This document shows, piece by piece, positions 30,514 through 55,013 of a stretch of DNA of 64,000 nt. A program made the position numbers and the translations under genes. The stretch comes from a virus (taxonomy: Duplodnaviria; Caudoviricetes), in IMG/VR virus record IMGVR_UViG_3300028593_000003; one strand, given 5' to 3'. Under the pieces are notes generated by a model. It saw nothing but the letters and a program-made list of their open reading frames with translations, ran no database searches and had not been told where the DNA came from. Position 1 is the first letter of the stretch. Every line of letters begins with the position of its first letter.

Positions 30514-32304
30514 CTACCAGTTCTTCTCCAATGTAAAATTTGCCCTTGAAAATTCAAGCCTGTCAACCAGTTTCAATATGTTACCAGACTTGTCAATAAC
30601 ACAGAAACCTTCCGGCTTTGTGACATTGTATCCATCACCACTACGGATGAATGTTCCGATGTTACTGATTTCCCCGAATTTCCTTACAAAAATATTTTTC
30701 AGGCGGATGAAAATCAGGTAAAGATACAGTAATCCCATTATTTCTCTCTTATATTTATGAAGAAAATGATGAGCAGAATCTATCATTTCCATTCTTCTTT
30801 TCTTGGCCTCTGGTGATTTCACCTGCTCAGCCTGTTCTTCATACCTTCTTTTTATGAAGAACATAAAATCTTCATAATAGGAAGTGATCGAGCGTAATGC
30901 TTGGGCGTTCTTGATGTTCTCATTGTGGAATATCCTGAACAGTTCATAAAGACCGAAGCTCTTCATTTTCTTGAAGATATCTTCCTTGACATATTTGGAA
31001 ACCCTTTCCGCCTCCGAAATCAGTTCATTGACTTTATCCACTTCCGACCTTGAGAAATTTACCGTACCACTTTCATCCCTGAAGTAGGCATCCTGCACCC
31101 ACACATCAGCGTCATTGAAATGGTCTGATACATCTATATTGAATTTGGCCGAAAGAGTATCGAGAGTTTTTCCTGTATATTCAGTATGAATGACGATGCC
31201 CATTTTCGCCCTTTTGATTTTCTGTGCCAAGTCACTATCACTTGGAACGGCATAGGTAATCGTATTTGGCGTGAATGTAATATACTTCACACCGTTTATG
31301 CTCTCCATTTTCTTGTCATCCGTAAAGAGAAGGTCACCTTGATATATCGTGTTTACTCCGAGATCTGATAGATATTTGAGGGATGTTTTCAACTTAGCTA
31401 CAAGTCCTGGCGCATGACCGAAATGCTCATTTACATCGGCATCCGTGTAGGCCAATTTTGGTGTCTTGTTGAAGAGGGCTTTTGTGCTAACAAAAAATTT
31501 CTTGTTCTCCGGATTGATACCAAAGAAAACAGCTGGCGCACCATCCCATTTGACTGTGATGGTCGCCCTATTTTTCGAATCTCCGGAAAGCGTGTCGCGA
31601 ATTAGCTCAGCCAACTCGATGTTCTTTTTTATACCGTCCACACCGTTGTTGAACATATTGTCCTCAAAATGTTCCATATGGCGGTTGATATCCTCATTGA
31701 TGAGTTCCTGTATGGTGTATGTCCTTTCTTCCTTGAACAGCTGACCCCTGACATTTCCAGGCCTTCCAACTGTTGCCTTGAGGAGCTTGCGAAACTTCTC
31801 AAACCATTCCTCATTATCCAATCCTTTTGCCACATTCCTTTTATATTCCTTGAAATCATTATTCCCAATAGCTTTTCTTGCCTTGGACGCAGAAATATCC
31901 TCCTCGGTTCTTTTTATTTCATCGAAGATGACATTATAATCCACTCCCCGAAACTGTACTTTATATCCGTCAATCCTGTCAGAACCGGCAATAATTGCAA
32001 TTCCATTCCCAGTTTCGATATTTTCCTGTTCAATGATGTCAGGAATATAGCCGTGGGATGACAATATCGGTTGCGCCTTCGGGTTCGTTATTCTGATGAT
32101 CGATCTTCTCTGATTGTATGTGAGGAAATTCTTGGCAAGTTTTGAGGATTTCTCACCCTCGATGATAAAAATATACACCCTCGAATATCTCTTCAAGGCA
32201 TCTTCAATAATTTTTTGGTGGGCTTTCGTAGGTGGTGACATTCTACCTATGAAAATTCCCACCGCTTTTGATTTCTGTTCCGTAAGGAATGTGGAAAATT
32301 TCAT
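30514..32304 (-). CDS. Cytidylyltransferase-like domain fused to a DUF6267-like (RNA-ligase-type) domain; leader MKFSTFLTE
   Basis: GRMSPPTKAH and AGSDR...ISASKAR (HIGH-class NTase), then HMEHFED, TVKWDG, QGD, EGFCV, KLVDR. Start at 32304 by TGATG coupling. Confidence 0.8.
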   Translation of the reverse strand: MKFSTFLTEQKSKAVGIFIGRMSPPTKAHQKIIEDALKRYSRVYIFIIEGEKSSKLAKNFLTYNQRRSIIRITNPKAQPILSSHGYIPDIIEQENIETGNGIAIIAGSDRIDGYKVQFRGVDYNVIFDEIKRTEEDISASKARKAIGNNDFKEYKRNVAKGLDNEEWFEKFRKLLKATVGRPGNVRGQLFKEERTYTIQELINEDINRHMEHFEDNMFNNGVDGIKKNIELAELIRDTLSGDSKNRATITVKWDGAPAVFFGINPENKKFFVSTKALFNKTPKLAYTDADVNEHFGHAPGLVAKLKTSLKYLSDLGVNTIYQGDLLFTDDKKMESINGVKYITFTPNTITYAVPSDSDLAQKIKRAKMGIVIHTEYTGKTLDTLSAKFNIDVSDHFNDADVWVQDAYFRDESGTVNFSRSEVDKVNELISEAERVSKYVKEDIFKKMKSFGLYELFRIFHNENIKNAQALRSITSYYEDFMFFIKRRYEEQAEQVKSPEAKKRRMEMIDSAHHFLHKYKREIMGLLYLYLIFIRLKNIFVRKFGEISNIGTFIRSGDGYNVTKPEGFCVIDKSGNILKLVDRLEFSRANFTLEKNW

Positions 32305-32552
32305 CAGCTGTGAACCCAAAATCCTCTTTTCTGCAATCCGGCCACTATCTGCTGGAAGAGCTTATATCTGTCATTCGGATTGCTCTCCATCTTACTTACC
32401 ATATGGGAAATATCGCTGTAGAAAATATCTCCGGCAATAGTCTTTCCCCCCTTTTCCATCGGGTGTGCCCGTGTTCTGGCAATCTTGTTTACCAAGATTT
32501 CTACATCTTGAGGTTTCGTTTTGAATTCTTTCAAATATTTTTGAAGTCTCAT
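32304..32552 (-). CDS. Small protein with YLxE leader (MRLQKYLKE)
   Basis: Coupled ORF carrying the shared leader. Confidence 0.75.
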   Translation of the reverse strand: MRLQKYLKEFKTKPQDVEILVNKIARTRAHPMEKGGKTIAGDIFYSDISHMVSKMESNPNDRYKLFQQIVAGLQKRGFWVHS

Positions 32553-32875
32553 TTATTCAACCTCTTGTTTATCTTCTGCCTCATTGCTTCCAAGTTTGTA
32601 ATATTATCTACCTTCGTAATCAGGTCATTGGCCACTTTTATGAGAAGTTTCAAATTACTTTGAACTTCAGGTATATAATCCAAATTCATTTCGTACATCA
32701 TCCCTGAAGCGCTTGACCAATTACTTTGAATTTCATCGAAGGCATCCTGTAAATCATCCAATACATTTTCTATCTCATCTTCCAGCTTATCAATTCTCTT
32801 ATCAAGGTCTTTTAGCTTCGGGTCGCGGGCCGCGGCCTCTCGCAAATATTCCCCAATTTTCTTCTCTATACTCAT
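32549..32875 (-). CDS. Small coiled-coil protein with YLxE leader (MSIEKKIGEYLRE)
   Basis: Coupled ORF carrying the shared leader. Confidence 0.75.
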   Translation of the reverse strand: MSIEKKIGEYLREAAARDPKLKDLDKRIDKLEDEIENVLDDLQDAFDEIQSNWSSASGMMYEMNLDYIPEVQSNLKLLIKVANDLITKVDNITNLEAMRQKINKRLNK

Positions 32876-33201
32876 CTCTTCATTCCCTCCAAATCTCTGG
32901 CAAGCGTGCTTCTCTCATCCTTCGCCGCATAGTCCATATTATAATTCATCTGCTTGATTATTTCCTTTGGTATACCAAGTTCCTCTCCCTTCTTGGTATT
33001 CACATCTTTCTTTATTCTTACATATCTGTCAAAATTCTTGAGAGCTTCTGCTGGATTGTCTTTATATGCCTCAAAAATCTTTTTCCTCTGAAGCTCAAGA
33101 TCTTGAATGGATGTCTTGATGAGATGCTTACCTCCCTCAAGCCAGTCCTCATCTTTTTTTGTTCCCTTGAAGATTTTGGATATCATTTCTATTGCTTTCA
33201 T
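32872..33201 (-). CDS. Hypothetical protein (MKAIEMISKIF...)
   Basis: Start placed at 33201 by TAATG coupling and a GGGGAG RBS. Confidence 0.65.
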   Translation of the reverse strand: MKAIEMISKIFKGTKKDEDWLEGGKHLIKTSIQDLELQRKKIFEAYKDNPAEALKNFDRYVRIKKDVNTKKGEELGIPKEIIKQMNYNMDYAAKDERSTLARDLEGMKR

Positions 33202-33554
33202 TATAAACTCAAACTCCCCGATTTGGCAAGATATACGGTCATTGCCCATACTTGGGCCCTTTTATCTTCCGGAACATCTCTCAAATCTCCTGTATATTTT
33301 AATTCCTGGCTTACATATTTTTTAATTATTGGCTCCTCATTAGGGCTCTTGTCAAGTATCTTTATATATTCTGCCCATAGTTTATTATCGACATCCCCCA
33401 GTATAGACGATAATCTCTTCGCATCATCAATATTTTTTGCGGAGGCTATCTTGAACATAAACTTTGTCAGATCCCACAGCCCGGCGGCCTCCATCAAATT
33501 CATCGGTTCTTTTATATAGAGATATTTTTCAATAAGTCTATCTTCTTTTTTCAT
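33201..33554 (-). CDS. Small protein with leader MKKEDRLIEKYL
   Basis: Coupled ORF with a leader variant. Confidence 0.7.
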   Translation of the reverse strand: MKKEDRLIEKYLYIKEPMNLMEAAGLWDLTKFMFKIASAKNIDDAKRLSSILGDVDNKLWAEYIKILDKSPNEEPIIKKYVSQELKYTGDLRDVPEDKRAQVWAMTVYLAKSGSLSL

Positions 33555-33817
33555 ACATTTGTCCTCTGTATTACTTTTTCATTCGGAGATTTTCCCCAAT
33601 ATGGATTTTCTTTCGCTTTCTCAATCAGATCATCTGGTGGCTCTTCATTGAGAAGTTGCGGGTGAAAGAGTATTCTATATTGTGGTCTTTTCTTCTCATC
33701 AAAATACGCAACAAGGGCAGACCAGCTGTTGATTTCCTGTATCACTACACCTTTCAACATAACCTTCTTGTTGATTTGTGCCCTTCCTACAACATAATCT
33801 CCGCTTTCAAGTTTCAT
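33551..33817 (-). CDS. Hypothetical protein (beta-rich, no leader)
   Basis: ATGA-coupled ORF. Confidence 0.65.
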   Translation of the reverse strand: MKLESGDYVVGRAQINKKVMLKGVVIQEINSWSALVAYFDEKKRPQYRILFHPQLLNEEPPDDLIEKAKENPYWGKSPNEKVIQRTNV

Positions 33818-34218
33818 TTCTTTTTCCCCGTCCTTGTTAAAGCGTCCAAATCTTCTTCCCTGATTTTTCCAAGGATGAAATAAAGATATTTTTTCTCATC
33901 ATCGTCCAGGCGTCTTTCAACCGCCCTTTTTATGTTATAAGATAGCATTGAATAATCCGCCCACGCGCCCTGTTTTTGAGTATATTTTTCAGCATATTTT
34001 TTGAGAAGGCCTTGAAATGTCTCATCCGCCCTCAATTTTTCCACAATCTCCTCCCCCCTTTTACTGTAAAAATAATTCTGGACTTTGACTTTTATCCTTT
34101 GATAAATATCTTGCGCCTCTCTTGAAATGGCGAGACCGAGCAGTCCTCCCATTACTATTGATAGTAGATATACGAAAGTTGGGTCTGCCTGTTCCGTCAA
34201 GTAATTTTTAAGCCTCAT
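33814..34218 (-). CDS. Protein with leader MRLKNYLTE followed by a transmembrane helix
   Basis: Hydrophobic stretch FVYLLSIVMGGLLGLAI follows the leader. Confidence 0.75.
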   Translation of the reverse strand: MRLKNYLTEQADPTFVYLLSIVMGGLLGLAISREAQDIYQRIKVKVQNYFYSKRGEEIVEKLRADETFQGLLKKYAEKYTQKQGAWADYSMLSYNIKRAVERRLDDDEKKYLYFILGKIREEDLDALTRTGKKK

Positions 34219-34544
34219 TTCTTTATTTTCTCCACCGCCTGTTTTATTTTTGAGATTTTTGCCACATCTTCGGAAAACCAGATGAGCCTGTCAAATAGTG
34301 GCTGTTCGTTATCATATCCACCATTCTCTCGTTCCCTTATCCAATCCCAAAATTCGTTTTCTTCATCAGCAATAGTCACCAAGGCATTGAATGATAATCT
34401 TTTCAGGTTCTTTTCGAAGTTGTCATAAACCATTTGAATATCATCTTCGGCATCATCCAGTAGCTTTTTGATTTCTTCCCATTCAGGTTGCTTTTGATAT
34501 GTCCACTCTTTCAAGTATTTTTCAAGCTTCTTATCTATTTGCAT
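34215..34544 (-). CDS. Small protein with leader MQIDKKLEKYLKE
   Basis: Coupled ORF carrying the shared leader. Confidence 0.75.
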   Translation of the reverse strand: MQIDKKLEKYLKEWTYQKQPEWEEIKKLLDDAEDDIQMVYDNFEKNLKRLSFNALVTIADEENEFWDWIRERENGGYDNEQPLFDRLIWFSEDVAKISKIKQAVEKIKK

Positions 34545-34776
34545 CGTAATCTCTCCTCAATTTCATCAGATCTTTTCTGATGCTCCGAATTGTATCTTCT
34601 ATACTTTTACGAGAAAATCCGGCGCCAAGGGATTTCATATTATCTTCTATATCATCAAGAAGTTTTGGTAACCTTTTCTCACACCATTTTTTATAATATA
34701 GGAGCAATTCTTCGTGATATTCGGGATCAATATTTTCAGTCAAATACTTTTCGATTTTATCATCTATTCTTTTCAT
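34531..34776 (-). CDS. Small protein with leader MKRIDDKIEKYLTE
   Basis: Start at 34776 (ATGA overlap). Confidence 0.75.
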   Translation of the reverse strand: MKRIDDKIEKYLTENIDPEYHEELLLYYKKWCEKRLPKLLDDIEDNMKSLGAGFSRKSIEDTIRSIRKDLMKLRRDYDANR

Positions 34777-35144
34777 TTGACATACCATCCATATTTTTTC
34801 TTGATGAATTTGGCGTGCTCATCCATCTCACTTACGAGCTCACTTACCAGATCCTCTGATATATATTGTAGAAGCTGATCTTGAACAAAAACAATAAGCT
34901 TTGCATAAAAGGTTTGGAAACATCTTTTCTGCCCAACCGGATCATCTTTGTATATTTCCATACAAGTATTCTCAGCATATTCATCCATTGCATTCAATGT
35001 TTTTGAAACAGTTTCTTTGAAAGCCTCCTCAGCTCTTTTCTGTGCAGCCTTGAGTTGTCCTCTCAATGGATTAAACCTGCTATCAATTGCCTCAGAAATA
35101 TTTTCGTTCAAATATCTATCAATCTTCTCGTCAATCGTTTTCAT
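34773..35144 (-). CDS. Small protein with leader MKTIDEKIDRYLNE
   Basis: Start at 35144 with a GAGGAG RBS. Confidence 0.75.
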   Translation of the reverse strand: MKTIDEKIDRYLNENISEAIDSRFNPLRGQLKAAQKRAEEAFKETVSKTLNAMDEYAENTCMEIYKDDPVGQKRCFQTFYAKLIVFVQDQLLQYISEDLVSELVSEMDEHAKFIKKKYGWYVK

Positions 35145-35145
35145 T

Positions 35146-35427
35146 TCAATACTCCTCATAATTTGGGCAAATTCCCTGTGGGTCTACATCCAATCCCGCG
35201 TGGATTGGAATGGGAATATCATATTCTTTAGCAATAATACTCATATTTTGTTCATTTCTACAAGTCATTTCAAGATAATAGTCACAGGTTCCACAACATT
35301 TTTGTTTCGTCATTTTATACCCAATGGCTTTCAGATCGAGTTTTGAAAGATCAATTCTTCCCTTTGGAGAATGATATATTGTGGCGTCTGTCAGATACAT
35401 ATCAATCTTCTCTTCAATCGTTTTCAT
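35146..35427 (-). CDS. Cys-rich small protein with leader MKTIEEKIDMYLTD
   Basis: CxxC...C...GxC pattern; paralog of 47883-48131. Confidence 0.75.
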   Translation of the reverse strand: MKTIEEKIDMYLTDATIYHSPKGRIDLSKLDLKAIGYKMTKQKCCGTCDYYLEMTCRNEQNMSIIAKEYDIPIPIHAGLDVDPQGICPNYEEY

Positions 35428-35831
35428 TATACTTTCTCCTGTAGTAACCTTATTAACTTCTCCAAGACATACTGTGCCTTATAGGGCATATCCGATACGA
35501 CACCGTGGGTCTTATTATTGATATCAATAGCAACACTTCTTGCTAGTTCTTTTGCAATCTTGTCAAGTTCTGGATAGTGGCCAAAAAGAGTTTTCTGGAT
35601 TTGCTTGTCAGCACTTCTCAATGCTGCCAAATCTTCCTTGTATCCCTCTTTCAATGAAGGGAAAACACGCTCTTTATTTTTGGGATGCCACATAGAATGA
35701 CCGTGACAATATCCCCCATCTCCTCTGGCTCCACCCCTTGTCCTTGTTCTCGCCCTTATCATCTTCTTACCACAAACAGGACATACCTCGTTTTGCTCAC
35801 CGATATATTTCTGGATTACTTTGTCTATCAT
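35427..35831 (-). CDS. Zn-ribbon protein with leader MIDKVIQKYIGE
   Basis: CPVCG...YCHGH. Confidence 0.7.
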   Translation of the reverse strand: MIDKVIQKYIGEQNEVCPVCGKKMIRARTRTRGGARGDGGYCHGHSMWHPKNKERVFPSLKEGYKEDLAALRSADKQIQKTLFGHYPELDKIAKELARSVAIDINNKTHGVVSDMPYKAQYVLEKLIRLLQEKV

Positions 35832-35837
35832 TTTTTA

Positions 35838-36461: not shown

Positions 36462-36465
36462 TTAT

Positions 36466-37263: not shown

Positions 37264-37264
37264 T

Positions 37265-37492
37265 TTATTCTCCAGCTTCTATTTTATCTTCAATATCCTT
37301 CTTCATAGCCACCAGTATTTCTATGGCATCATCAATAAAAGTAAATGCCATTTTATCATTATAATTCAGATATGATCCTTCAAGTGCCCTCAACATATCC
37401 ATTATTCTATGAATATCAACTGGCACCTTTGCTAACGGATGTCTACTCCCAATGTCATCCTTCAATAATTTACTCATCTTGTTTCTATCCAT
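37265..37492 (-). CDS. Hypothetical protein
   Basis: 75-aa ORF. Confidence 0.55.
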   Translation of the reverse strand: MDRNKMSKLLKDDIGSRHPLAKVPVDIHRIMDMLRALEGSYLNYNDKMAFTFIDDAIEILVAMKKDIEDKIEAGE

Positions 37493-37863
37493 TCATCCTG
37501 TACTGCATCCCAAAAGGGTTCAACCATTGGATTACCTATTTTCTGATGGGGTGTGACATATTTTGCCACCAATTCTTGATATTTATCCTTGAAAAATTTA
37601 TCAACTGTTCTGGATGGTATTCCCCATGCGCCTTCTGCGGCATCGCTTGCCTCGTCAAGTTCCTTTACTACATCGGCAACTGCTTTTCTGTAAATCTTGT
37701 CTATTTTTTCCTGTGCAATCATCACTTGATCCTCTGCCCGTTCAATTGCATCATCCATAATATTATCAATTGTATTATAAATTACTTGCCATTCGGCTCT
37801 TGCCCTTCTGGCTTCCATATCGGCCTCTTTCAGATACTTTGTAATTTTCTTATCCACGCTCAT
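37474..37863 (-). CDS. Small protein with leader MSVDKKITKYLKE
   Basis: GGAGG RBS and the shared leader. Confidence 0.75.
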   Translation of the reverse strand: MSVDKKITKYLKEADMEARRARAEWQVIYNTIDNIMDDAIERAEDQVMIAQEKIDKIYRKAVADVVKELDEASDAAEGAWGIPSRTVDKFFKDKYQELVAKYVTPHQKIGNPMVEPFWDAVQDEWIETR

Positions 37864-38045: not shown

Positions 38046-38058
38046 TATAATTCTCTAT

Positions 38059-38066
38059 TATTTATA
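38059..38066 (-). promoter_or_regulatory. T4-type late promoter TATAAATA
   Basis: Immediately after the terL stop codon. Confidence 0.7.
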
Positions 38067-38068
38067 TT

Positions 38069-39616: not shown

Positions 39617-39620
39617 GCAA

Positions 39621-42589: not shown

Positions 42590-42611
42590 ATTGAAACCCC
42601 TTTTTATTATG

Positions 42612-42641
42612 TGGCGGTGGCAGAGAAATCTGCCACCGCCA
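42612..42641. other. Perfect 13-bp GC-rich hairpin between prkA and yeaH
   Basis: TGGCGGTGGCAGA-GAAA-TCTGCCACCGCCA; no U-tract on the sense strand. Confidence 0.8.
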
Positions 42642-42677
42642 TCTCCCGAAGCATCTCACACCGATTTGGAGGAGATA

Positions 42678-46453: not shown

Positions 46454-47362
46454 TTAGAATTTATTCTCTTTCAGAATGGTGACAACTCCCTTCAGATACT
46501 TGCTAAAAGGATCGTCACTTTCCTCGACCGGCTTTCCTTCCTGATCTTCGACCTCGATTTTGCCTTGACCCATATCCTCCGCTGGAGTTGGTTCATCAGC
46601 ATCTTTCATCTTGGCGCCGCAGGATGGGCAGGCCATTGCGGAGCACGCACCTTTTGTGGTTGCGTGAGAACCGCAGGATGGGCAAACACAATCATTTGTC
46701 TTTGCCTCTGCATCAGGCTCCTGGCTGCCTGGCTTTAGACCAAATTCGGCATCCGGTGCTTCCTGTTCGAGAATGGTGTCAACAACAATCTGGAACTTTC
46801 TGTCGATTTCTGTTTTCTCATTCAGATCGCCCAGAAGGTCGAGAACCTTTCTCCTCTGTGCCTCTGTGAGGCCGTCACACTTCTTTCTCAAATAGAGATG
46901 AGATGCAAGAGCACGGGCATCTTCTTCTGCCTGAATTCTCTTTGAAGTTTCTTTGTTGAGTTCATCTTTCAGTTTGATGATCTCTTCTTTTGCTTCGCGG
47001 AGAAGGCCTTTGATTTCCTCATTCAGAACTCCCTCATCAATAGCAAGTCTTACTTTGAATTCCTGAATGACTTCATCATAAAGTTCGCCCTTCTTTGCAT
47101 ATTCCACAACTTTATCAGGCAACTTGAGTTCTTCTTCAAGAACGGTATCTACAAAATTGGAAAACTTTGATGTGATATCGCCTTTATATTCCTCAAACTT
47201 GCCCTCGTATTCCTCGATGAGTTTCTCAGATTCTTCCTTGACAAGCTTGTCTGCTCTCTCACGGGATTTTACATCCACGATGGCTTCCAGCTTCTCTTTT
47301 ACGGCTGAAATCTGTGACTCTTCGAGTTTCTCAATACCGAGCACTTTCAAGATTTCTTCCAT
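46454..47362 (-). CDS. Prohead scaffold protein (T4 gp22-like) with an inserted Cys-rich zinc module
   Basis: Acidic coiled coil, GLTEAQRRKV, position before gp23; CVCPSCG...C...CPSCG. Confidence 0.8.
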   Translation of the reverse strand: MEEILKVLGIEKLEESQISAVKEKLEAIVDVKSRERADKLVKEESEKLIEEYEGKFEEYKGDITSKFSNFVDTVLEEELKLPDKVVEYAKKGELYDEVIQEFKVRLAIDEGVLNEEIKGLLREAKEEIIKLKDELNKETSKRIQAEEDARALASHLYLRKKCDGLTEAQRRKVLDLLGDLNEKTEIDRKFQIVVDTILEQEAPDAEFGLKPGSQEPDAEAKTNDCVCPSCGSHATTKGACSAMACPSCGAKMKDADEPTPAEDMGQGKIEVEDQEGKPVEESDDPFSKYLKGVVTILKENKF

Positions 47363-47379: not shown

Positions 47380-47799
47380 TTATTTTTTACTCTTAGACTC
47401 AGAGAGTCTTTTAAGTCTTTTCTTTGGTTTCTTCGATTCGACAACTTCATCTTCGATATCTGCATATTCGTCTGCTATGGTATCATCAACCACTTCATCG
47501 TCTACTACATCCATTTCGGATGTATCGTCATCAAGATGTGTCTCATCGAAATTCCAATCTCTATCTGTCAGTTCGAATGGAGGTTCGAAGGCCGAGAGAA
47601 TTTCCTCTCTGATCCTTTTGCCTTCAGCATCAAGAACATTTGGGTCAAGGCTATAGATGAAATTTCCCATCCTATCGAGAAGCTCGTCCATATCAAAGCT
47701 TTCTTTCAAACATCGTTTTGGATCTCTCTTGCGAAGCCTCTTTTGATCTTTCGCAAGAAACTCATCAATTCTATCAAGAATAGACATACTTTCCTCCAT
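47380..47799 (-). CDS. Acidic prohead-associated protein (leader SILDRIDEFLAKD)
   Basis: Very acidic, in the head module, with a leader variant. Confidence 0.65.
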   Translation of the reverse strand: MEESMSILDRIDEFLAKDQKRLRKRDPKRCLKESFDMDELLDRMGNFIYSLDPNVLDAEGKRIREEILSAFEPPFELTDRDWNFDETHLDDDTSEMDVVDDEVVDDTIADEYADIEDEVVESKKPKKRLKRLSESKSKK

Positions 47800-47882
47800 T
47801 TGGAATTATTTATCGGTTTTTTGATTGTTTTGAACAGATTGGTTAAAACACAGGATTATCAAGGGTTTTCAGTTACAGTTTT

Positions 47883-48131
47883 TTATTTTGGTGTATATTT
47901 TTTACATACGCCGTTCAATGATACCCAAAATGTAAGTGTTCCATATTTTCTGGATATTCTTATATTTTGTGGATTTACACATCTATTTTTAAATTTGCCT
48001 ATATCAATGTGAAGGCAGGTTGCACAGACATCGATTTTTCTCTCCTGATATCCGGCCTCGAAATATTGTTCATCTTCATAGGTAGTCTCTTTTTCCGCCA
48101 AATATTTTTCCACCACTCTCTCTATTTCCAT
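47883..48131 (-). CDS. Cys-rich small protein with leader MEIERVVEKYLAE
   Basis: CATC...C...GVC; paralog of 35146-35427. Confidence 0.75.
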   Translation of the reverse strand: MEIERVVEKYLAEKETTYEDEQYFEAGYQERKIDVCATCLHIDIGKFKNRCVNPQNIRISRKYGTLTFWVSLNGVCKKYTPK

Positions 48132-48170
48132 TTCAAGCGTGTGCCTTCCCTACTATTTTTTGCTCCTGTT

Positions 48171-48400
48171 TTATTTTTTCAACTTACTTCTGAGCGACGC
48201 TAATTCTTCCTGTGCAAGTTTTAGATTGGTCTTAATAAGACTTAGATGACTATCGGCATACTCATCCGCCTGTTTATCATCTTTTATACTCTTCCAATGT
48301 TCCTCGGCTTTTTGATATACTACTTTTTTCCTTTCTATCTTTTTTTGAAGCTCAATAATTTTCTTTTTGATGGGTTCATTCTGTTTGGCCTTCTTCTCAT
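48171..48400 (-). pseudogene. 3' part of a leader-bearing gene interrupted by IS607
   Basis: Joins in frame with 50491-50569 (79+230 = 309 nt). Confidence 0.75.
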
Positions 48401-48414
48401 CCGTTCTCCAATAC

Positions 48415-49653
48415 CTACCAGAATCTACCATGAGATTCTGCGCTTGGTTCCTGCTTCAAAGAGGCTGCCAACGATACTGCTGTTGGTCTTATATCACTCT
48501 CCACAGGCGTAACTTTCCGAGGAACTCTCGGTAGTTTTGCTGCTAAATTCTTGAGATTGATGGCTGCGTTTAGGTCGCGGTCATGTATTGCACCACAGTC
48601 GCAAGTCCACTCCCTATCTGATAACTTCAACTCCGAGTTGATGCAACCACAATGCCTGCATAGACGCGAAGATGGGAAAAATCTGTCGGCGACTATCAAT
48701 TCGGAGCCGTACCAAACTGTCTTGTATTCCAGTTGCCTGCGAAACTCAGCAAATCCAACATCGCTGATTGCCTGTGCCAAGCAATGATTTGCCAACATCC
48801 CAGATACATTTAGGTCTTCAAGCACAACTACACTTGGACGTTCATTATCGGGTTTGGTTTTCGCAACGATAACAGACGTTGATTTGTGTAGTGTGTCACG
48901 GCGTATGTTGGCTATCCGTTGATGCGCTTTGGCAACTTTCTTCCGTGTCTTTTCTCGATTCTTTCCACCTTTCTTTCGGCGCGACAGTTCGCGTTGAAGC
49001 CGCCTGAGTTTAGCCTGTGCCTTCTTTAATGGCTTCGGATTCTCGAATCTCTGCCCATCAGAAACCACAGCCAATTCCTTAACGCCCAAATCAACGCCTA
49101 TGGGTTCTCCGATTGCCTGGGTAGCCTCAATCTCTTGTTTGCATTGAACACTTACAAACCATCGCCCTGCCGATTCTGAAACGGTGACAGATAAAATATG
49201 GATGCCATCAGCCGGGATGTAGCCGTGTTCTTTTAGCCTGAGCCAGCCAATACGAGGAAGTTTAATGTGTGTCTCAGTGATGTGAATTGCGCCAGTCAGT
49301 CTAAAACTTCCAATACCATTCTTGCGACTTTTGAACCTTGGGAAGCCCGGTTTTTTTTCATTCTTCACACGGCGGAAGAAGTTTTGATATGCCTTGTCCA
49401 AATCGCGCAGGGCTTCTTGTGGAGCAGCTTTTGAAACTTCGTAAAGCCAGGGGAAATCTGTCTTTTTCAATGCGTTCAACTGCCGGTGTTGCTCTATAGC
49501 ATTGCTGGACTTACCGGTTTCCTCATATTCCTGCTTTCGTCTTGCAAGTCCCCAGTTCCAAGCAAAGCGAGCAGCGCCCGCATGTTTCAGCAATGCAGTT
49601 CGTTGAACATTGTTGGGGTCAAGCTCGGTTTTGTAGGCTCTAAGAATTTCCAT
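48415..49653 (-). CDS. tnpB: TnpB RNA-guided nuclease
   Basis: RAYKTEL HTH, GFPRFKSRK, RuvC GVDLGV / VLEDL / DRDLNAAINL, zinc finger CRHCG...CDCG. Start at MEILRAYK. Confidence 0.96.
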   Translation of the reverse strand: MEILRAYKTELDPNNVQRTALLKHAGAARFAWNWGLARRKQEYEETGKSSNAIEQHRQLNALKKTDFPWLYEVSKAAPQEALRDLDKAYQNFFRRVKNEKKPGFPRFKSRKNGIGSFRLTGAIHITETHIKLPRIGWLRLKEHGYIPADGIHILSVTVSESAGRWFVSVQCKQEIEATQAIGEPIGVDLGVKELAVVSDGQRFENPKPLKKAQAKLRRLQRELSRRKKGGKNREKTRKKVAKAHQRIANIRRDTLHKSTSVIVAKTKPDNERPSVVVLEDLNVSGMLANHCLAQAISDVGFAEFRRQLEYKTVWYGSELIVADRFFPSSRLCRHCGCINSELKLSDREWTCDCGAIHDRDLNAAINLKNLAAKLPRVPRKVTPVESDIRPTAVSLAASLKQEPSAESHGRFW

Positions 49654-50266
49654 CAGTCTTTTTCTTCCTACGTTCTGCACTTCTGCGACCATAGATTTTT
49701 GCGCTGAATGACGAAAGCAATGAAAGCATATCCTCGACCAACTCAGCCTCGTAGGATTTTGGCAATACTTCTTCACACCATTCTACGGCAACACCGTGAC
49801 TCTCAAATAGTCTGACAAAGATTGAGAAATTGAAACGAGCCAATCTATCCTTGTGTTCAATGACAACTCGATTGATTTTCTGCTCGATAGCCAAGTCAAA
49901 TAACCTGTGCAACTTTGGGCGGCTGTCGTTCATGCCTGATAGCGTTTCCTCAAAAACATAGCCAACTCGATATTGTTTGTTGGCACAGTATTCAAGCACT
50001 CGCAACTTTTGGCGTTCTAAGTCGCCTTTCTGTTTCTGGTCGTGGCTGCTGACACGGGTATAAACCGCAACACAATCATTTGGCGGATTGTCTTCTGATA
50101 CTACACCTTGAAGTTGCTCAATATCTTCAATGCGGTATCTCCGATGTCCGCCCTTTGTACGTTCTGCTTTCAATGCGCCAGAATCGTCCCACGCTCGGAG
50201 CGTAGAGATTCCGACACCCAAAAGTTCAGCGGCTTTCGCTATCCCGATTAGTCTCTTGCTCGTCAT
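49640..50266 (-). CDS. tnpA: IS607 TnpA serine recombinase
   Basis: MerR-like HTH (AAELLGVGISTLRAWD...GGHRRY), YTRVSS, DRLARF, ELVEDM, SFSAKIYGRR. Confidence 0.96.
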   Translation of the reverse strand: MTSKRLIGIAKAAELLGVGISTLRAWDDSGALKAERTKGGHRRYRIEDIEQLQGVVSEDNPPNDCVAVYTRVSSHDQKQKGDLERQKLRVLEYCANKQYRVGYVFEETLSGMNDSRPKLHRLFDLAIEQKINRVVIEHKDRLARFNFSIFVRLFESHGVAVEWCEEVLPKSYEAELVEDMLSLLSSFSAKIYGRRSAERRKKKTDGNS

Positions 50267-50423
50267 CCAGTTCCTTCTCGAAAAGTTCTCGCCAATGGTC
50301 GTAGATGCGCTGAAATTCCTCATTGGTGGGAACTTCATCGAGTTCAAACGGGTGTTGGTAAACCCGCCCGTCGTCAAGTTCAAACTCAGTCTTGGTTACT
50401 CGTGTGACCATCGCTCGTTTCAT
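50226..50423 (-). CDS. Small acidic ORF carried inside the IS607, upstream of tnpA
   Basis: 65 aa with a GGAGGTG RBS; overlaps the tnpA start. Confidence 0.6.
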   Translation of the reverse strand: MKRAMVTRVTKTEFELDDGRVYQHPFELDEVPTNEEFQRIYDHWRELFEKELDDEQETNRDSESR

Positions 50424-50490
50424 CCTTCACCTCCAATTATACTAAAAGATTTTGGTAGTGTCAAGTAGATTATAGTAGATTATCTACTAA

Positions 50491-50569
50491 CTGTTCCTAC
50501 CCTTTCTTTTTGGCTTAGGCCAAAAATTTCACCAAGATATCTTTCCATTATCAAATCTACTTTATCCAT
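50491..50569 (-). pseudogene. 5' part of the interrupted gene (MDKVDLIMERYLGEIFGLSQKERVGT)
   Basis: TAATG-coupled ATG at 50569 and a YLxE leader; not in the supplied ORF track. Confidence 0.75.
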
Positions 50570-51003
50570 TATATGTTTCTCCCTGTTGTGAACTTTACTT
50601 TATACTCAAAAAGGTCTTTCAATGTGCTGAGACTTTTCCAGAGATAGGTATAGGCCTCATGTATTGTTTCGTATTCCTCATCATCAAAAAAACCATCCCG
50701 CCACATTGCTTTCAACGAATTGAGGTTCCTTTCCATTTCATTGTCAAACTTTCTTATACTGGAAACCATATTGGCCAATGCCATCGGGGCGCTTGCCTCA
50801 TTCATCTCATATTGTTTCGATTCTGGAAATGTGACATCGCCGGTGAAGGTGGTTTCAACGGAACCGCTGATATACTTGTCCATCAGTTGATAGGCCTTTT
50901 TGGTTTTCTTCTTGGCCTGATAAAACTCCGGAAACTTTTTCCTGAGCATATCGTCAATTTTCTCTTCCTTGCCCATTTTTCCACCCTCTATTTCCGTGTT
51001 CAT
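50569..51003 (-). CDS. Hypothetical head-module protein
   Basis: 144-aa coupled ORF with a weak leader (EEKIDDMLRK). Confidence 0.65.
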   Translation of the reverse strand: MNTEIEGGKMGKEEKIDDMLRKKFPEFYQAKKKTKKAYQLMDKYISGSVETTFTGDVTFPESKQYEMNEASAPMALANMVSSIRKFDNEMERNLNSLKAMWRDGFFDDEEYETIHEAYTYLWKSLSTLKDLFEYKVKFTTGRNI

Positions 51004-51638
51004 TACTTCATCCCCCTCTCGATATCAGCAATAACTTGCCAGATTTTCTTGTAATACTCTTTCTGCGCCTCTTTCAGGGAGATTTTTGGCTGCTCGATAA
51101 CAGGCTCTTCGACAACCTTTTCCTTTTTTGGTGGTTCAAAGTCCTGGCCTTCATAGATACCATTTACCCAAGACGGGTGATTGGACGGGTCTGTAACCAT
51201 ATCCCAAGTGATGAGATAAAAGTCCTCATTGACATAACCATTCTCATTGACGGAACCGAGGCCTCTGGAAGAAATACCCATTCTGCCTTCTTTGATAAGG
51301 GTCTTGGCAATATTTCCCATCGGAGTATCAAGAACTTTTGACCTCCCGATTACATTCGGGCCATCCCAATCAAGCTTTTCAGTCAGAATGGCAATCTTGT
51401 CAGGATTGATTTCAGGATTTGGTGGGTGACCAAGTTCGCCCCAAAGGCTCCTGTTCGTCAATCTCTCTTCCAGCTTGCCAATTTCTCTTTCGAGAATATC
51501 TTTGGAATATATCCTCTTGTTGTTGTTCTCTTGATCGGCTGTGCTGTAGATGCCAGTAATGTAAAGAGATTTCCCTTTCTGTTCAGACTCCTCCACAATA
51601 AACTCAATATTGTGGGAGAGCTCGGTAATAAGCTTCAT
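51003..51638 (-). CDS. gp21: Prohead protease (T4 gp21)
   Basis: MKLITE, NNNKRIY, GELGHP, LDTPMG, GISSRGLGS, DMVTDPS. Confidence 0.96.
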   Translation of the reverse strand: MKLITELSHNIEFIVEESEQKGKSLYITGIYSTADQENNNKRIYSKDILEREIGKLEERLTNRSLWGELGHPPNPEINPDKIAILTEKLDWDGPNVIGRSKVLDTPMGNIAKTLIKEGRMGISSRGLGSVNENGYVNEDFYLITWDMVTDPSNHPSWVNGIYEGQDFEPPKKEKVVEEPVIEQPKISLKEAQKEYYKKIWQVIADIERGMK

Positions 51639-51677
51639 TTTCTTTTCCTCCCAGTTTCTTTACACGAACAAATAAAA

Positions 51678-52028
51678 TTACTCGTTCCCGGCACCAACTG
51701 TTTTCAGAATACGGATAGGTGTGGTCTTGATGACATTGATGACCTGCGCAATTCTCTGATTGTTGGGGAATTTCGTTACAAGTTCGTGTGCGAGAGACAT
51801 TGCTTTCGCAAACTTTGCTGGTGTATTTGCCATTGTGAGATAGTATTTCAATCTCTTGAGGCCCTGTGTAATACTGCCGGCATCCCTTGTTGGATCGTAG
51901 GTGCCTGGTACTGAACTGGCTACAGGCGGATAAAGTTTTTGATCACCGGCTGAAAATTCCTGTGGCTCCGGTTCATCAAAAACTCCTTCCTTCAAATACA
52001 TATCAATTTTTTCCTCGATCTTTTTCAT
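51678..52028 (-). CDS. Small protein with leader MKKIEEKIDMYLKE
   Basis: Carries the shared leader. Confidence 0.75.
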   Translation of the reverse strand: MKKIEEKIDMYLKEGVFDEPEPQEFSAGDQKLYPPVASSVPGTYDPTRDAGSITQGLKRLKYYLTMANTPAKFAKAMSLAHELVTKFPNNQRIAQVINVIKTTPIRILKTVGAGNE

Positions 52029-52210
52029 TTCTTCTTCTTGTCCTCCGCTGGTTTTTGTTTCGGTTTCTCTATATCTTTTGACAAGCCGAGCTTGTTCTTC
52101 AGATATTCATTCTTTGCCTGCTTGACAACATCCTTTACTACCTCTTTGGCAGTAATAAAATCGTCATTCTCAAAAGAATCCAAAGCTTTTTTAACGTCTT
52201 TTTCGTCCAT
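52025..52210 (-). CDS. Prohead core protein (gp67-like)
   Basis: MDEKDVKKALDSFENDDFITAKE with an AGGAG RBS; lies between portal and protease. Confidence 0.6.
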   Translation of the reverse strand: MDEKDVKKALDSFENDDFITAKEVVKDVVKQAKNEYLKNKLGLSKDIEKPKQKPAEDKKKK

Positions 52211-52220
52211 AACACACTCC

Positions 52221-52475
52221 TTATTTTTTGGCTGCCTTTTCTCTTTCTCTTTCAGCCTTTGCTTTTTCCTGATAACTCTCGATTCTCTTCTGCAGAGTTT
52301 CGATGTGGGCCTGTCCTCTTTTACGGATTTGCTCTTTCCTGTCAGGATCGTCCGTATCCTCCACAGCCCGACTGACCAGTTCACGGGTATCCCGTATCTG
52401 TTTTCTCAAAAGGCTAATAGTATCCGAGTAATCAGCTTCCATAAGATATCTTTTCATAACTCTGTTAACTTCCAT
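52221..52475 (-). CDS. Small coiled-coil protein with leader MEVNRVMKRYLME
   Basis: GAGGTG RBS and a late promoter upstream. Confidence 0.7.
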   Translation of the reverse strand: MEVNRVMKRYLMEADYSDTISLLRKQIRDTRELVSRAVEDTDDPDRKEQIRKRGQAHIETLQKRIESYQEKAKAEREREKAAKK

Positions 52476-52492
52476 CAGACACACCTCTGATA

Positions 52493-52500
52493 TATTTATA
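52493..52500 (-). promoter_or_regulatory. T4-type late promoter TATAAATA
   Basis: Exact consensus in an intergenic region. Confidence 0.7.
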
Positions 52501-52517
52501 ATTATTTATATATTTTA

Positions 52518-55013
52518 TCAGTCTTTTCTCCTGTTTATAAAATCTATTGACATTTGAATAATATATTTGAACATCTCATTCAATTTTGTATCTTGGTGAG
52601 ATTCCAGCTGCAAACAAGTTTGAAAATCCTTGTGAAACTGAATTGTATCTTGAACTGTCGAGCCTTTACCTCCCTTTGGTCGCAGCGTTTGAACACCTAT
52701 CAAAAACTCTTTACCTTCCCTATCAATTCCATAGATGTTTGCATATCCTGAAGATGATAATCCCCTCACTTTTTTTCCTTCCGTATCGAAATCATCATCA
52801 TCTTCAACATCGGTGCTACTACATTTGACTTCTGAAACTCTTATATGCTTCCAGAAATCCTGCTTATCTTTCTTTGTTTTCAAACCAAGACATTTGGAAA
52901 AGGTTTCTGTATTCCCCACAGTCGCAGTATCACCATCTGTCAATCCGGTTATTGTTCTGGTAACCTCCTGACCGTTTACTATTCTCGTAAATCTTTCAAC
53001 CTGCTTTTCCTTACCTTTTTCTTTAACCGTGACCATCTTCCTTTCCCACGGATTACCCTGTTCATCGTATCTTATTCTACTATTATTTTTCCCCATATTC
53101 AATTCAAAATACTTTGCTGGTATTCCACCAACATTGTGCCCGGAAACAATATGACCGTGAAACCTGTCTATAAACAATTTGGAAAAATATTCGTCGCCTT
53201 TACCTTTGAGGGCTTTATTCATTTCTTTTCTCGCCTCATTTTGTAGCATATGCTGTTCCTGATATTTCCCGGCCATAGCCTTTTCATCAAATGGCGCAAT
53301 TCTGCTTGCAACTTTACTCATTTCTTTTGAAACATCAATTGTATCGTCCACTACACTTGCTTTCAATTCATTAACATATGAGAGAAGTATTTTTTTCTCC
53401 TCTTCATCAGTCAATGGTGGTTTATATGTTCCTGTTTTACTATTAAAAGTCCGGCCTTTTATAGGTGTATCACCTTCATAATATCTCTTGACTATCGAAT
53501 TCCAATATTTTGCTGGTTCATCTCCTGTACTTGATTTTTTTATTTCATCTATGAGCTTTTTTCTTTCATTTGGTTTCAAAGCTCTCTGATAAAGTTTATC
53601 ATATTCTTTGCTGATGACCCCCTCTACTTCTGACTGTTTTTCCTCCAATCTCTTGACAAGTCTATCACAGGCTTTCTTGTAGGCATTATATTCTTTTGCT
53701 GAGATTTTTCCATCGTTCAAATCCTCTTCCGCATAAGATAACATTTTTTTGACATTCGATACTGGGCTTGAATTTCCTTGGATATCAGATGTGGATGTCT
53801 TATTGGATGTATGAAGAATAACTGCCTTTGGAGGCTTCTGTGAATGATCTATAAGAACTGACATTGTATCAGTAGGATTATCTCCAGCACCTCCTCCCAA
53901 AATGACAGATTTATATTTGTTAAATGATACACCATTTACTTCCACTACTCCCATCTTATCGAGAAAATCAACTGTGTTTTGTAAAGATTCTTTACTCCCC
54001 CAAACGTGAGAAACTGTAGTGGTCTTTGGATTAAATCCATCCTCTTTCATTACTCTTTTTATTCTTCTATGTTCGGCTTTTGCAGAAATGGCCGCGGCAT
54101 ACGCCGCTTTTTGACTTAATTCCTCTCCATTTTTATAAACAACATCCGTATCTTTTATCTCTTTCCATAGTTTTTGATAAAGTTGGTTTACATTCATATT
54201 TGGATTTTGATGGAGATAAGAAAGACAAGTTCCAATACTCGTTTCATTGATAAATGATGATTTATTGCCCGGAGCCTTTGTTCTTCCTTCATATGCCCCC
54301 TTCTTTGCGTCACCATCAATTATATCAATTATAGAGCGATCCATACCACCCTTTTCTTTCAGGGTTTTCAAAACTTTCTCTTGTTTTTTGGTCGCCTTTT
54401 CCTTCTCAACCTTTTCAACTTTTGCGGCGTATTTTTTGTAAACATCTTCTGACCAAGCTGGGGCGCCGGTTTCTCCACCTTCTCCAAATTGGTCGTGGAA
54501 ATTGTGAAGAAATTTCGATAGCTCTTCTTGTTCCATCCCCTTTAATAAACTATCAAACTTTTTTGTTTTCTCTTGATCTGTTTCTTTGGATTTGACAATG
54601 GAAGAAAATTCTTTATTTTTTATTTTCTTTATCGCGTCTTTCTGGTGATCTGTGATTCCCGCCGGAGACACGGCCTCTTTAGGTTTTTCCTTTTCTTTTC
54701 CAAGTTCCTCTTCGTGTTTTGTCTCTATTTTTTTCGCCTTTGAATCTTTTTGTTTGAGTGGAGCCCCAAGATGGCTCGCATATACTCCTTCTGGATATCT
54801 ATCAAGTATATAATTCTGCTCGCCGGCAGACCATTTATTCCATCTTGCTATTTGTTCCGGTGTAATTTCCTTTTTCTTTTTATCGCTTGGCTTTTCTTTT
54901 GCCGTTGTTTTTTCTTTCGGCTTCAACACACTTACAGGCGCCTTTGACTTTGGCTTTGTGGCCTCAAAAAAAATATCAGAAATATTTTCTTTTACGAAGT
55001 TTCTAAATTTCAT
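52518..55013 (-). CDS. Large Lys-rich protein with leader MKFRNFVKE; putative internal head protein
   Basis: 831-aa ORF directly after the portal gene, with a T4 IP/Alt-like N-terminus. Confidence 0.7.
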   Translation of the reverse strand: MKFRNFVKENISDIFFEATKPKSKAPVSVLKPKEKTTAKEKPSDKKKKEITPEQIARWNKWSAGEQNYILDRYPEGVYASHLGAPLKQKDSKAKKIETKHEEELGKEKEKPKEAVSPAGITDHQKDAIKKIKNKEFSSIVKSKETDQEKTKKFDSLLKGMEQEELSKFLHNFHDQFGEGGETGAPAWSEDVYKKYAAKVEKVEKEKATKKQEKVLKTLKEKGGMDRSIIDIIDGDAKKGAYEGRTKAPGNKSSFINETSIGTCLSYLHQNPNMNVNQLYQKLWKEIKDTDVVYKNGEELSQKAAYAAAISAKAEHRRIKRVMKEDGFNPKTTTVSHVWGSKESLQNTVDFLDKMGVVEVNGVSFNKYKSVILGGGAGDNPTDTMSVLIDHSQKPPKAVILHTSNKTSTSDIQGNSSPVSNVKKMLSYAEEDLNDGKISAKEYNAYKKACDRLVKRLEEKQSEVEGVISKEYDKLYQRALKPNERKKLIDEIKKSSTGDEPAKYWNSIVKRYYEGDTPIKGRTFNSKTGTYKPPLTDEEEKKILLSYVNELKASVVDDTIDVSKEMSKVASRIAPFDEKAMAGKYQEQHMLQNEARKEMNKALKGKGDEYFSKLFIDRFHGHIVSGHNVGGIPAKYFELNMGKNNSRIRYDEQGNPWERKMVTVKEKGKEKQVERFTRIVNGQEVTRTITGLTDGDTATVGNTETFSKCLGLKTKKDKQDFWKHIRVSEVKCSSTDVEDDDDFDTEGKKVRGLSSSGYANIYGIDREGKEFLIGVQTLRPKGGKGSTVQDTIQFHKDFQTCLQLESHQDTKLNEMFKYIIQMSIDFINRRKD

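Follow-up and report, generated by a model that had tools for sequence, protein, structure and literature searches.

Why do sixteen otherwise unrelated proteins of one phage begin with the same short peptide? The question is raised by a 64,000-nucleotide stretch of viral DNA (Caudoviricetes; IMG/VR record IMGVR_UViG_3300028593_000003; hereafter "the window" for the whole stretch analyzed), in which a set of minus-strand genes between positions 30514 and 55013 shares an N-terminal leader. The window is the morphogenetic core of a T4-like myovirus, with almost all genes on the minus strand, and its source is a deep-branching, uncultured T4-like (far-T4) myovirus. By analogy with T4, the leader is probably the form that the T4 capsid targeting sequence (CTS) takes in this lineage, and the prohead protease would remove it.

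A Common Leader on Unrelated Proteins

Fifteen intact minus-strand open reading frames (ORFs) of 81-831 amino acids (aa) and one 29-aa stub bear the leader in 30514-55013. It is 9-16 residues long, starts in every case at the initiator Met, and ends in (Y/F)(L/I/V)x(E/D). The 16 leaders quoted in an initial annotation of this DNA were all found at minus-strand ORF starts, and the limits given there for the region are right: the first tagged ORF stops at 30514 and the last one begins at 55013. The tagged ORFs are listed below; all are on the minus strand, and each starts at the higher of its two coordinates.

T01, 30514..32304 (-): 596 aa, leader MKFSTFLTE; cytidylyltransferase-like domain at residues 17-176 and DUF6267 at 207-594
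T02, 32304..32552 (-): 82 aa, leader MRLQKYLKE; no family
T03, 32549..32875 (-): 108 aa, leader MSIEKKIGEYLRE; acidic, helical
T04, 33201..33554 (-): 117 aa, atypical leader MKKEDRLIEKYLYIKE (KYLYIKE)
T05, 33814..34218 (-): 134 aa, leader MRLKNYLTE
T06, 34215..34544 (-): 109 aa, leader MQIDKKLEKYLKE
T07, 34531..34776 (-): 81 aa, leader MKRIDDKIEKYLTE
T08, 34773..35144 (-): 123 aa, leader MKTIDEKIDRYLNE
T09, 35146..35427 (-): 93 aa, leader MKTIEEKIDMYLTD with Asp as its last residue; four-Cys pattern as in T12
T10, 35427..35831 (-): 134 aa, leader MIDKVIQKYIGE; CPVC...CHGH Cys/His motif and Arg/Gly-rich stretch; basic, isoelectric point (pI) 9.6
T11, 37474..37863 (-): 129 aa, leader MSVDKKITKYLKE; acidic
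T12, 47883..48131 (-): 82 aa, leader MEIERVVEKYLAE; four-Cys pattern
T13 stub, 50480..50569 (-): 29 aa, leader MDKVDLIMERYLGE; truncated by an IS607-type element
T14, 51678..52028 (-): 116 aa, leader MKKIEEKIDMYLKE; immediately upstream of the protease gene
T15, 52221..52475 (-): 84 aa, leader MEVNRVMKRYLME, followed by ADYSD
T16, 52518..55013 (-): 831 aa, leader MKFRNFVKE; directly downstream of the portal gene

The leader is strongly concentrated in this region: 15 of the 36 ORFs within 30514-55013 are tagged, vs. none of the other 43 (Fisher P = 1.0e-6). Taken over the whole window (15/79), the frequency also exceeds the 3.7% background measured at internal Met residues (binomial P = 1.9e-7), and the 9-residue form of the leader, searched as a frame-independent DNA pattern, has three matches where shuffled sequences give an expectation of 0.09. 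The tagged genes are placed between the portal and protease genes and inside the neck operon. The initial annotation would have been refuted by an equal frequency of the motif on early non-virion proteins; the non-virion genes of the window, at 1-12 kb, serve as a negative control within it and are all untagged (SbcCD-like gp46/47, RecA/UvsX, a GIY-YIG nuclease, a Ro60/TROVE protein and a weak match to sigma-70 region 2, which is possibly gp55-like).

Similarity among the tagged proteins stops at the terminal Glu, as had been noted: an all-against-all BLASTP of the post-leader parts gave a best E of 0.03 (16-sequence database). This rules out that the tagged ORFs form one paralogous family. 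T09 and T12 share their four-Cys pattern and may be distant paralogues, with a BLASTP E of 0.12 that is not significant. The DNA around the leaders is not shared either. Upstream regions are unrelated and leader codons differ, the sole near-identical pair being the adjacent T08 and T09 (26/27 nt), and the conserved object is therefore the peptide, not a DNA repeat. A repeated DNA cassette, with a shared promoter, ribosome-binding site and leader, was considered and is ruled out by the same two observations.

Further leader-like elements were found. One is internal to T01 (see below), and versions lacking the terminal Glu (P1, as numbered in the next section) stand on two ORFs near the scaffold and protease genes:

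139-aa ORF, 47380..47799 (-): upstream of the scaffold gene; leader-like helix without the P1 Glu (SILDRIDEFLAKD)
144-aa ORF, 50569..51003 (-): downstream of the protease gene; leader-like EEKIDDMLRKK without the P1 Glu

In the tail module, an ORF at 12187-12549 (-) begins MRLLKHLSNSG, and its homologue in the related genome G001 (19828-20178) begins MKFRDYLDSD, which is leader-like with no P1 Glu; a tag on a tail-region protein that has decayed or is not cleaved is possible.

Leader Anatomy and the T4 Capsid Targeting Sequence

A consensus was built from 54 leaders, those of the window together with those of G001 (a whole 161.6-kb contig whose capsid protein is 64% identical to that of the window), aligned on the terminal Glu. 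Counted back from this residue as P1, it has Met at P9, Arg/Lys at P8, Phe/Leu/Ile at P7, Tyr at P4 (47/54), Leu at P3 (46/54) and Ala/Ser/Gly at P1'. P1 is Glu in 50 leaders and Asp in four. P3 is Leu, Ile or Val in all 54, and the leader end thus fits the prohead protease motif (L/I)-x-E. P7 is Phe, Leu, Ile, Tyr or Met in 52 of the 54, and P4 is Tyr, Phe or Trp in every one, a position partly fixed by the search pattern. The 9-residue form, M-(R/K)-(L/F)-x-x-(Y/F)-(L/I)-x-E, is carried by T01, T02, T05 and T16; the 12-16-residue form reads M-x-x-(I/V)-(D/E)-x-K-(I/L)-x-(K/R)-Y-L-x-E.

In the T4 genome, MKTYQEFIAE starts both ipII and ipIII, as two identical copies, each on a gene with the annotation "internal virion protein". 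Internal protein (IP) III needs no more than its first 10 residues for incorporation into the head, and mutagenesis of the CTS has located targeting mainly at residues 4 and 7 and processing at residues 8 and 10; Asp at position 10 leaves targeting intact and blocks processing (PMC9026906). Residues 4, 7, 8 and 10 of the T4 sequence correspond to P7, P4, P3 and P1, which are the conserved positions of the window leaders. Core proteins of T4 start in a like style (gp67 MEGLIE, gp22 MLKEQLIAE, gp24 MAKINELLRE, Alt MELITE), and the window protease does begin MKLITE, as had been reported from the sequence, a start nearly the same as that of Alt. We also observed that T4 gene 61.1 (NC_000866, 18966-19130 (-)), beside the primase gene, encodes an uncharacterized 54-aa protein that begins MKTFKEFIKE, closely resembling both the ipII/ipIII CTS and the leaders of marine DUF6267 proteins.

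The cleavage motif is the best conserved part of the leader, and some tagged proteins are enzymes for which N-terminal blocking could matter. Both features would suit a protease-removable propeptide that serves as a timing or zymogen switch until late protease activity, with no packaging into the capsid. We regard such a switch as very improbable: the substrates of T4 gp21, by published description, have already entered the prohead when it acts (PMC9026906, PMC5694885), P7 and P8, both conserved, match targeting and not processing positions of T4, and in both of our structure models the leader is predicted to be disordered and detached from the folded body, the region being of low confidence and unpacked against the fold. 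A T4-type leader that both targets and is cleaved agrees better with these positions, and the initial proposal to that effect is supported by the four CTS positions together with the head genes of the window.

Head Machinery and the Predicted Capsid Cleavage Site

The genes on which a T4-type route into the head would depend are present:

Prohead protease, 51003..51638 (-): Peptidase_S77 (8.7e-27), gp21 family; N-terminus MKLITE
Scaffold protein, 46454..47362 (-): T4_CASP (1.5e-8), gp22 family
Major capsid protein, 45257..46429 (-): gp23 family; propeptide site KYLTE/AG at residues 40-44 (nt 46298-46312)
Portal protein, 55014..56690 (-): phrog_213

Other structural genes in the window encode baseplate, sheath, tube, gp15-like sheath stabilizer, neck/adaptor and large terminase proteins. 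No cultured phage has a capsid protein more than 36% identical to this one, the best such matches being in phage C48C1, Pelagibacter phage HTVC008M, Acidovorax phage ACP17 and Stenotrophomonas T4-like phages.

The capsid protein has its own leader-like site. Its propeptide reads ...LENEYKYLTE/AGNW (the slash marks the predicted cut), in which the Glu is residue 44 and Y-L-x-E ends a conserved stretch; the presence of KYLTE at residues 40-44, claimed previously, was verified. Equivalent propeptide sites in relatives are YLSE, WLME, WLQE, IMLE and YMTE. T4 gp23 is cut at SFLTE/A (E65), in agreement with its published 65-residue propeptide (PMC5694885), and in a multiple alignment this site aligns with FLTE, FLGE and FLSE of C48C1, HTVC008M and Melnitz.

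A tagged protein offers a comparable case. The orthologue of T15 in the closest relative reads KYLSLVE/ADYSD and the window protein KRYLME/ADYSD; the difference is a 2-residue insertion that keeps a hydrophobic-x-Glu (Φ-x-E) directly before the conserved mature N-terminus. Selection appears to act on the leader peptide and not on the DNA, with cleavage itself seemingly constrained.

Eight copies of the T4 late-promoter consensus, TATAAATA, are on the coding strand and one is on the opposite strand; sites stand before the sheath gene, the tube gene and T15, among others. The site at T15 is double:

Two T4-type late promoter consensus sequences in overlapping range (TATAAATA), 52493..52510 (-): upstream of T15

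Expansion and Turnover in Related Genomes

Thirty related loci were found via the protease (51-90% identity), many of them with leaders on different ORFs. Whole-genome counts, made with one ORF caller and one N-terminal regular expression for all genomes, are as follows:

G001: 42 N-terminal matches in 272 ORFs (P = 5e-13 vs. a 4.2% background)
G002: 17 in 235, most of them clearly leader-type
T4: 9 in 271, at background; includes ipII, ipIII and the head protein Inh
HTVC008M: 4 in 200, at background
C48C1: 9 in 207, at background

About 38 matches are left in G001 after removal of obvious false ones; the tag thus sits on roughly 15% of the ORFs there. The C48C1 matches include a genuine cluster of five leader-bearing genes, one of which encodes a DUF6267 protein. 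Searched as DNA, the 9-residue pattern has 25 matches in G001, nine in G002, one in C48C1 and none in HTVC008M or T4, with none for reversed-pattern controls. The 10-residue CTS of T4 cannot match this pattern, so the ORF-based count is the fair comparison. Together, the C48C1 cluster, the T4 matches and the whole-genome counts thus suggest that the tag type is old within T4-like phages and that its expansion is specific to this lineage.

The tagged ORFs of G001 are grouped: some arrays surround its neck and terminase genes, others belong to the head module, and the rest make up three more islands. The largest tagged ORF encodes a 478-aa enzyme of the CCA-adding/poly(A)-polymerase family with an HD domain. 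Neighbors of the arrays include a GmrSD-N/HNH nuclease, an EcoRI-type methyltransferase, a SprT-like protease and a RimK-type ATP-grasp protein, the last with a leader-like start lacking the Glu. The GmrSD_N + HNH nuclease and EcoRI-type adenine methyltransferase genes lie inside a tagged-gene array, at 49814-51854 (-).

We also considered whether the leader might be recognized by something outside the head, such as a RiPP-like modifying enzyme (ribosomally synthesized and post-translationally modified peptide), a membrane or other assembly site, or translation initiation, its likeness to a protease site being coincidental. The distance of numerous tagged genes from head genes in relatives would fit such a role, but we give it little credence. 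No candidate partner enzyme co-occurs in the window, the varying codon usage of the leaders makes a role at the mRNA level unlikely, and four-position agreement with the mapped T4 CTS, joined to the phage's own capsid site, would be hard to obtain by chance.

The cargo behind the leader is exchanged rapidly. None of the 16 tagged proteins of the window has a homologue in G001 or G002. The 65-kb contig G003, a third relative, aligns collinearly with the window (77-84% nucleotide identity) except in the tagged arrays, where this order breaks. Eight of the 16 are not in G003: T02, T03, T05, T07, T09, T10, T12 (absent from L002/G003) and T13, with its insertion sequence (IS) element. Orthologues exist for T04, T06 (beginning MKRIDEKIERYLSE), T11 (beginning MSIDKKIEEYLGE), T14 and T15; T08 is reduced to a leaderless ORF for its C-terminal part, and T16 is ~36% identical. 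G003 also has two leader-type ORFs of its own. The cargo thus turns over fast, half of it being missing from a relative of ~80% identity, and the earlier description of the set as large and variable holds.

This turnover bears on a further explanation, that the tagged proteins do enter the prohead but are mostly assembly components of the gp67, gp68 or IPIII type, later cut up and expelled or kept as DNA-packing filler, and not injected effectors. T14, T15 and the 139-aa and 144-aa ORFs occupy the place of T4 gp67/gp68, among the portal, protease and scaffold genes, and are kept in closer relatives; many of the small tagged proteins are simple, charged and helical with no enzymatic signature; and T4 IPIII influences head assembly (PMC9026906). 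Essential assembly parts should nevertheless be conserved, yet the relative of ~80% identity lacks half of the tagged genes, G001 and G002 share none of them, and some of the cargo consists of enzymes (the nucleotidyltransferase and RNA-ligase-like T01, the CCA-adding enzyme of G001). We therefore find this explanation unlikely for the set as a whole, while the small conserved proteins beside the protease may be core or scaffold accessory proteins like gp67/gp68 instead.

Predicted Cargo

Searches of Pfam and PHROGs with the 16 tagged proteins gave a family for T01 alone; the others had nothing or sub-threshold noise of the coiled-coil type. Among the small proteins, T05 has a 19-residue hydrophobic stretch directly after the leader, a putative membrane helix, and the leader of T14 is kept in four orthologues. 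A complex prediction for the scaffold and T14 scored 0.00, which gives no information either way.

T16, the largest, has a disordered Lys/Pro-rich linker followed by a large conserved body without a Pfam family. The family has 17 detectable members with many invariant polar residues, and in distant members, too, the N-terminal peptide ends in (I/L)-x-E. For T16, Foldseek had no PDB match at E <= 0.001, a sequence search of T01 and T16 against solved structures had no matches, and in BFVD the T16 matches were to uncharacterized phage proteins only. VIA-align of the body gave HinP1I (Z 6.1; 220 residues aligned, root-mean-square deviation 4.5) and MspI (Z 5.5), and in the ESM Atlas the neighbor cluster has RE_HaeIII on 24% of its members (score 0.89); both results are weak hints of a restriction-endonuclease-like (PD-(D/E)xK) fold and are not counted as an assignment.

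T01 joins two domains, and a second leader-like site lies between them:

Internal leader-like site of T01, 31693..31719 (-): YTIQELINE, residues 196-204, followed by D

Its homologue in stand-alone DUF6267 proteins is the leader at their N-terminus. The 120 best homologues include 106 stand-alone proteins, of which 105 carry a leader, typically MLTFKQYLTE, and eight of nine fusions retain a hydrophobic-hydrophobic-x-Glu site just before the conserved core. From its N-terminal leader and internal site, T01 is therefore predicted to be cut twice, probably to yield two mature enzymes. The homologue in cyanophage S-RSM4 has no leader (MANIKQLKHLEHLED) and lies beside a separate cytidyltransferase gene, among replication genes. 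With the family leaderless there and tagged elsewhere, the tag is therefore a modular addition. This natural modularity hints that the leader could by itself load a foreign protein into the head.

DUF6267 itself may be RNA-ligase-like. T01 has motif I (KxDG, with the catalytic lysine) of the ATP-dependent RNA/DNA ligase-like covalent nucleotidyltransferases as VKWDG at K252, and in the family alignment K53, D55 and G56 (A2 numbering) are each at least 90% conserved. For the model of the domain (predicted local distance difference test, pLDDT, 78; predicted template modeling score, pTM, 0.70), the top seven VIA-align matches are all RNA ligases, with Z of 6.2-7.8 over 163-195 aligned residues, values in the range of chance matches. 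The ligases include the eukaryal nick-sealing enzyme (PDB 5cot), T. brucei REL1, T4 Rnl2, fungal Trl1 and T4 Rnl1, and the last is also the top Foldseek match (E = 0.018, modest). The matches agree in kind while the scores are modest, and the model suggests an RNA-ligase-like fold. DUF6267 is present in hundreds of marine phage genomes. The name occurs in no searchable paper, and a cyanophage genomics paper (PMC3037559) makes no mention of DUF6267 or cytidyltransferase genes, so no published virion evidence exists for the family.

The T01 gene of G003 (L083-L084, 19762-22047) carries an interruption of ~0.5 kb, placed precisely at the KWDG motif, and the downstream ORF begins with an unrelated sequence (MKVKKVNKIKQKYPECD...); an intron, a mobile insertion or a pseudogene is possible.

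T13 is represented in the window by its first 29 codons:

IS607-type insertion, 48401..50490, ends approximate (-): TnpA at 49640-50383, TnpB at 48415-49776
Probable 3' remainder of T13, 48171..48400 (-): on the far side of the element

The stub joined to the frame beyond the element makes an uninterrupted ORF of 102 aa, and 48171..48400 is the probable 3' remainder; no intact homologue of the split gene was found among the related loci. TnpA is a serine recombinase with a MerR-type helix-turn-helix (HTH) domain (Resolvase 1.4e-22, MerR 1.3e-10), and TnpB matches OrfB_IS605, a Cas12f1-like TNB domain and HTH_OrfB. The element is not at the same site in the closest relative (L002/G003). In the window it sits in the head module of a lytic-type T4-like phage, where it splits a tagged gene.

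A Proposed Route from Leader to Host

Transferred from T4, the steps would be these. The hydrophobic P7 and aromatic P4 of the amphipathic leader would attach the protein, once made, to the scaffolding core while the prohead assembles, and the Leu-x-Glu at P3-P1 would be the cutting site of the gp21-family protease. After closure of the shell the protease would trim the leader along with the capsid propeptide and the scaffold, leaving the mature proteins free inside the head, from which they would exit with the DNA at infection. The tag would then act as a general, exchangeable address within the lineage: cargo genes come and go or are substituted quickly, and the tag and head machinery are retained. 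We infer docking, cleavage, packaging and ejection, and any role against host defenses or in host takeover, by analogy.

Several points weigh against this proposal. The phage is uncultured, and every functional step is argued from analogy. Accessory islands with restriction-modification-like neighbors, away from structural genes, hold many of the tagged genes in relatives; the initial description of the set as late genes accordingly stands for the window, whose tagged genes are in late-type operons among head and neck genes, and not for those islands. The KYLTE of the capsid protein had been placed where T4 gp23 is cleaved. The region and the motif agree, but in the alignment KYLTE lies ~19 columns upstream of the T4 E65 site, in a gappy stretch and not strictly aligned with it, and exact positional homology is therefore not established. 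The P1 of T09 is Asp, which in T4 blocks processing and permits targeting (PMC9026906). Cargo pI ranges from 4.6 to 9.8 and is not uniformly basic, unlike that of the T4 IPs. Finally, ~40 packaged proteins per phage would be far above the T4 number (three IPs plus Alt), though not above that of giant phages, with about 50 head proteins (PMC7411985).

It is plausible, from T4 precedents, the turnover and the presence of enzymes among the cargo, that some of these proteins act after injection; the precedents are IPI*, which acts against GmrSD, and Alt (PMC3012670, PMC9026906). Only two cargo proteins have an activity that can be inferred, T01 and one protein of G001, and both point to RNA or nucleotide enzymes. 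More speculative, and in our estimate somewhat doubtful, is a wider hypothesis: that the CTS has become a general loading address used by up to ~15% of genes, that the virion delivers a strain-specific kit including RNA-repair and nucleotide enzymes, which could counter tRNA- or nucleotide-targeting defenses before phage expression begins, and that DUF6267 proteins are among those injected.

Other Features of the Window

The window contains further genes of note, among them the large terminase:

Large terminase, 38069-39616 of the window

In the large terminase region of G003 (L084, 26687-28876), ~1 kb of DNA is extra relative to the window (G003 27995-29006). It lies within a 729-aa ORF beginning MENHNCYEIEF...VVDEEHLWC and suggests an intein or other insertion in the terminase (TerL). 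Between the capsid-side genes and the large terminase of the window stands a complete triad of PrkA (AAA_PrkA + PrkA), DUF444/YeaH and SpoVR genes (39687-44636 (-)), which is kept in G001 at 55-67% identity.

The phage-encoded Ro60/TROVE-vWA protein is at 3944-5302 (-). Just upstream of its gene, in a 740-bp gene-free gap, is a match to YrlA (Y RNA-like) at 5477-5543 (-) that is below threshold (33.7 bits, E = 3.9e-5; gathering score 69); a Ro-Y RNA module of the phage is possible. In the late region, 57939-62096 (-) encodes a 1385-aa multidomain protein with two methyltransferase domains and a weak match to group-1 glycosyltransferases (26.9 bits vs. a cut-off of 26.4), and a TATAAATA motif stands before it at 57934.

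Significance

It has already been proposed in print that T4-like phages can use the CTS to load a variety of proteins (PMC9026906), and we found no paper on a CTS outside T-even and giant phages. Three things are notable here: the scale, how cleanly the leader fits the T4 genetics, and the prospect of assigning the very large DUF6267 family a location and a function that can be tested. Injected proteins are the first to meet host defenses and have hitherto been hard to identify. On the wider hypothesis above, metagenomes could serve to predict the injected proteome of uncultured T4-like phages, because the address is a 9-residue peptide that can be read from sequence; if the tag works as in T4, the proteins injected with the DNA could be named across a whole uncultured lineage. 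Internal proteins would then be a major arena of phage-host conflict, not a T-even curiosity, and the tagged genes a ready list of candidate counter-defense proteins for screening. For DUF6267 a cellular location would follow and, with it, the hypothesis that RNA repair is carried out by an injected enzyme. In addition, the T4 system already used for loading foreign proteins into capsids has in this tag a natural variant.

Comparison with Known Systems

The closest known system is the CTS of T4 IPII and IPIII (and IPI). In both, a short leader ending in Ile/Leu-x-Glu stands on unrelated proteins, the protease and scaffold belong to the same families, the targeting positions 4 and 7 hold hydrophobic or aromatic residues, and the cargo is non-conserved and fast-changing (PMC9026906, PMC3012670). 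The two differ in sequence, which here is M-(R/K)-(L/F)-x-x-Y-L-x-E or a 12-16-residue xIDxKIxKYLxE and not MKTYQEFIAE; in number, with 16 tagged genes in 25 kb and about 38-42 in the 161 kb of a relative, against a handful in T4; and in cargo, which includes large enzymes and acidic proteins where T4 has small basic ones.

T4 Alt, a packaged ADP-ribosyltransferase, is a large enzyme found in the head after loss of a very short N-terminal peptide, and the large tagged proteins of the window would resemble it in this. No sequence homology to Alt was detected for T16 or T01, nor any ADP-ribosyltransferase signature, and T16 directly follows the portal gene whereas T4 alt lies elsewhere in its genome. 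T4 gp67/gp68, gp21, gp22 and gp24 resemble the window set in their L/I-x-E N-termini, and small tagged ORFs of the window are placed between portal and protease like gp67/gp68.

Giant phages (phiKZ, 201phi2-1, SPN3US) have dozens of head-internal proteins and a homologous protease that cuts after Glu (PMC5694885). The N-termini of their paralogues are conserved, and one ejection protein bares a transmembrane helix once its propeptide is removed, as is predicted for T05 (PMC5694885). Their propeptides are mostly longer than 100 residues with the motif (S/A/G)-x-E, in contrast to the 9-16 residues and the aromatic-Leu-x-Glu found here, which follow T4.

The hyperplastic internal-protein loci of T-even phages share with these arrays a conserved leader, unrelated bodies and differences in presence and absence between close relatives, IPs being poorly conserved apart from the CTS (PMC9026906, PMC3012670). 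The arrays described here differ in being several per genome and lying inside the neck and head operons, with one gene disrupted by an IS607 element.

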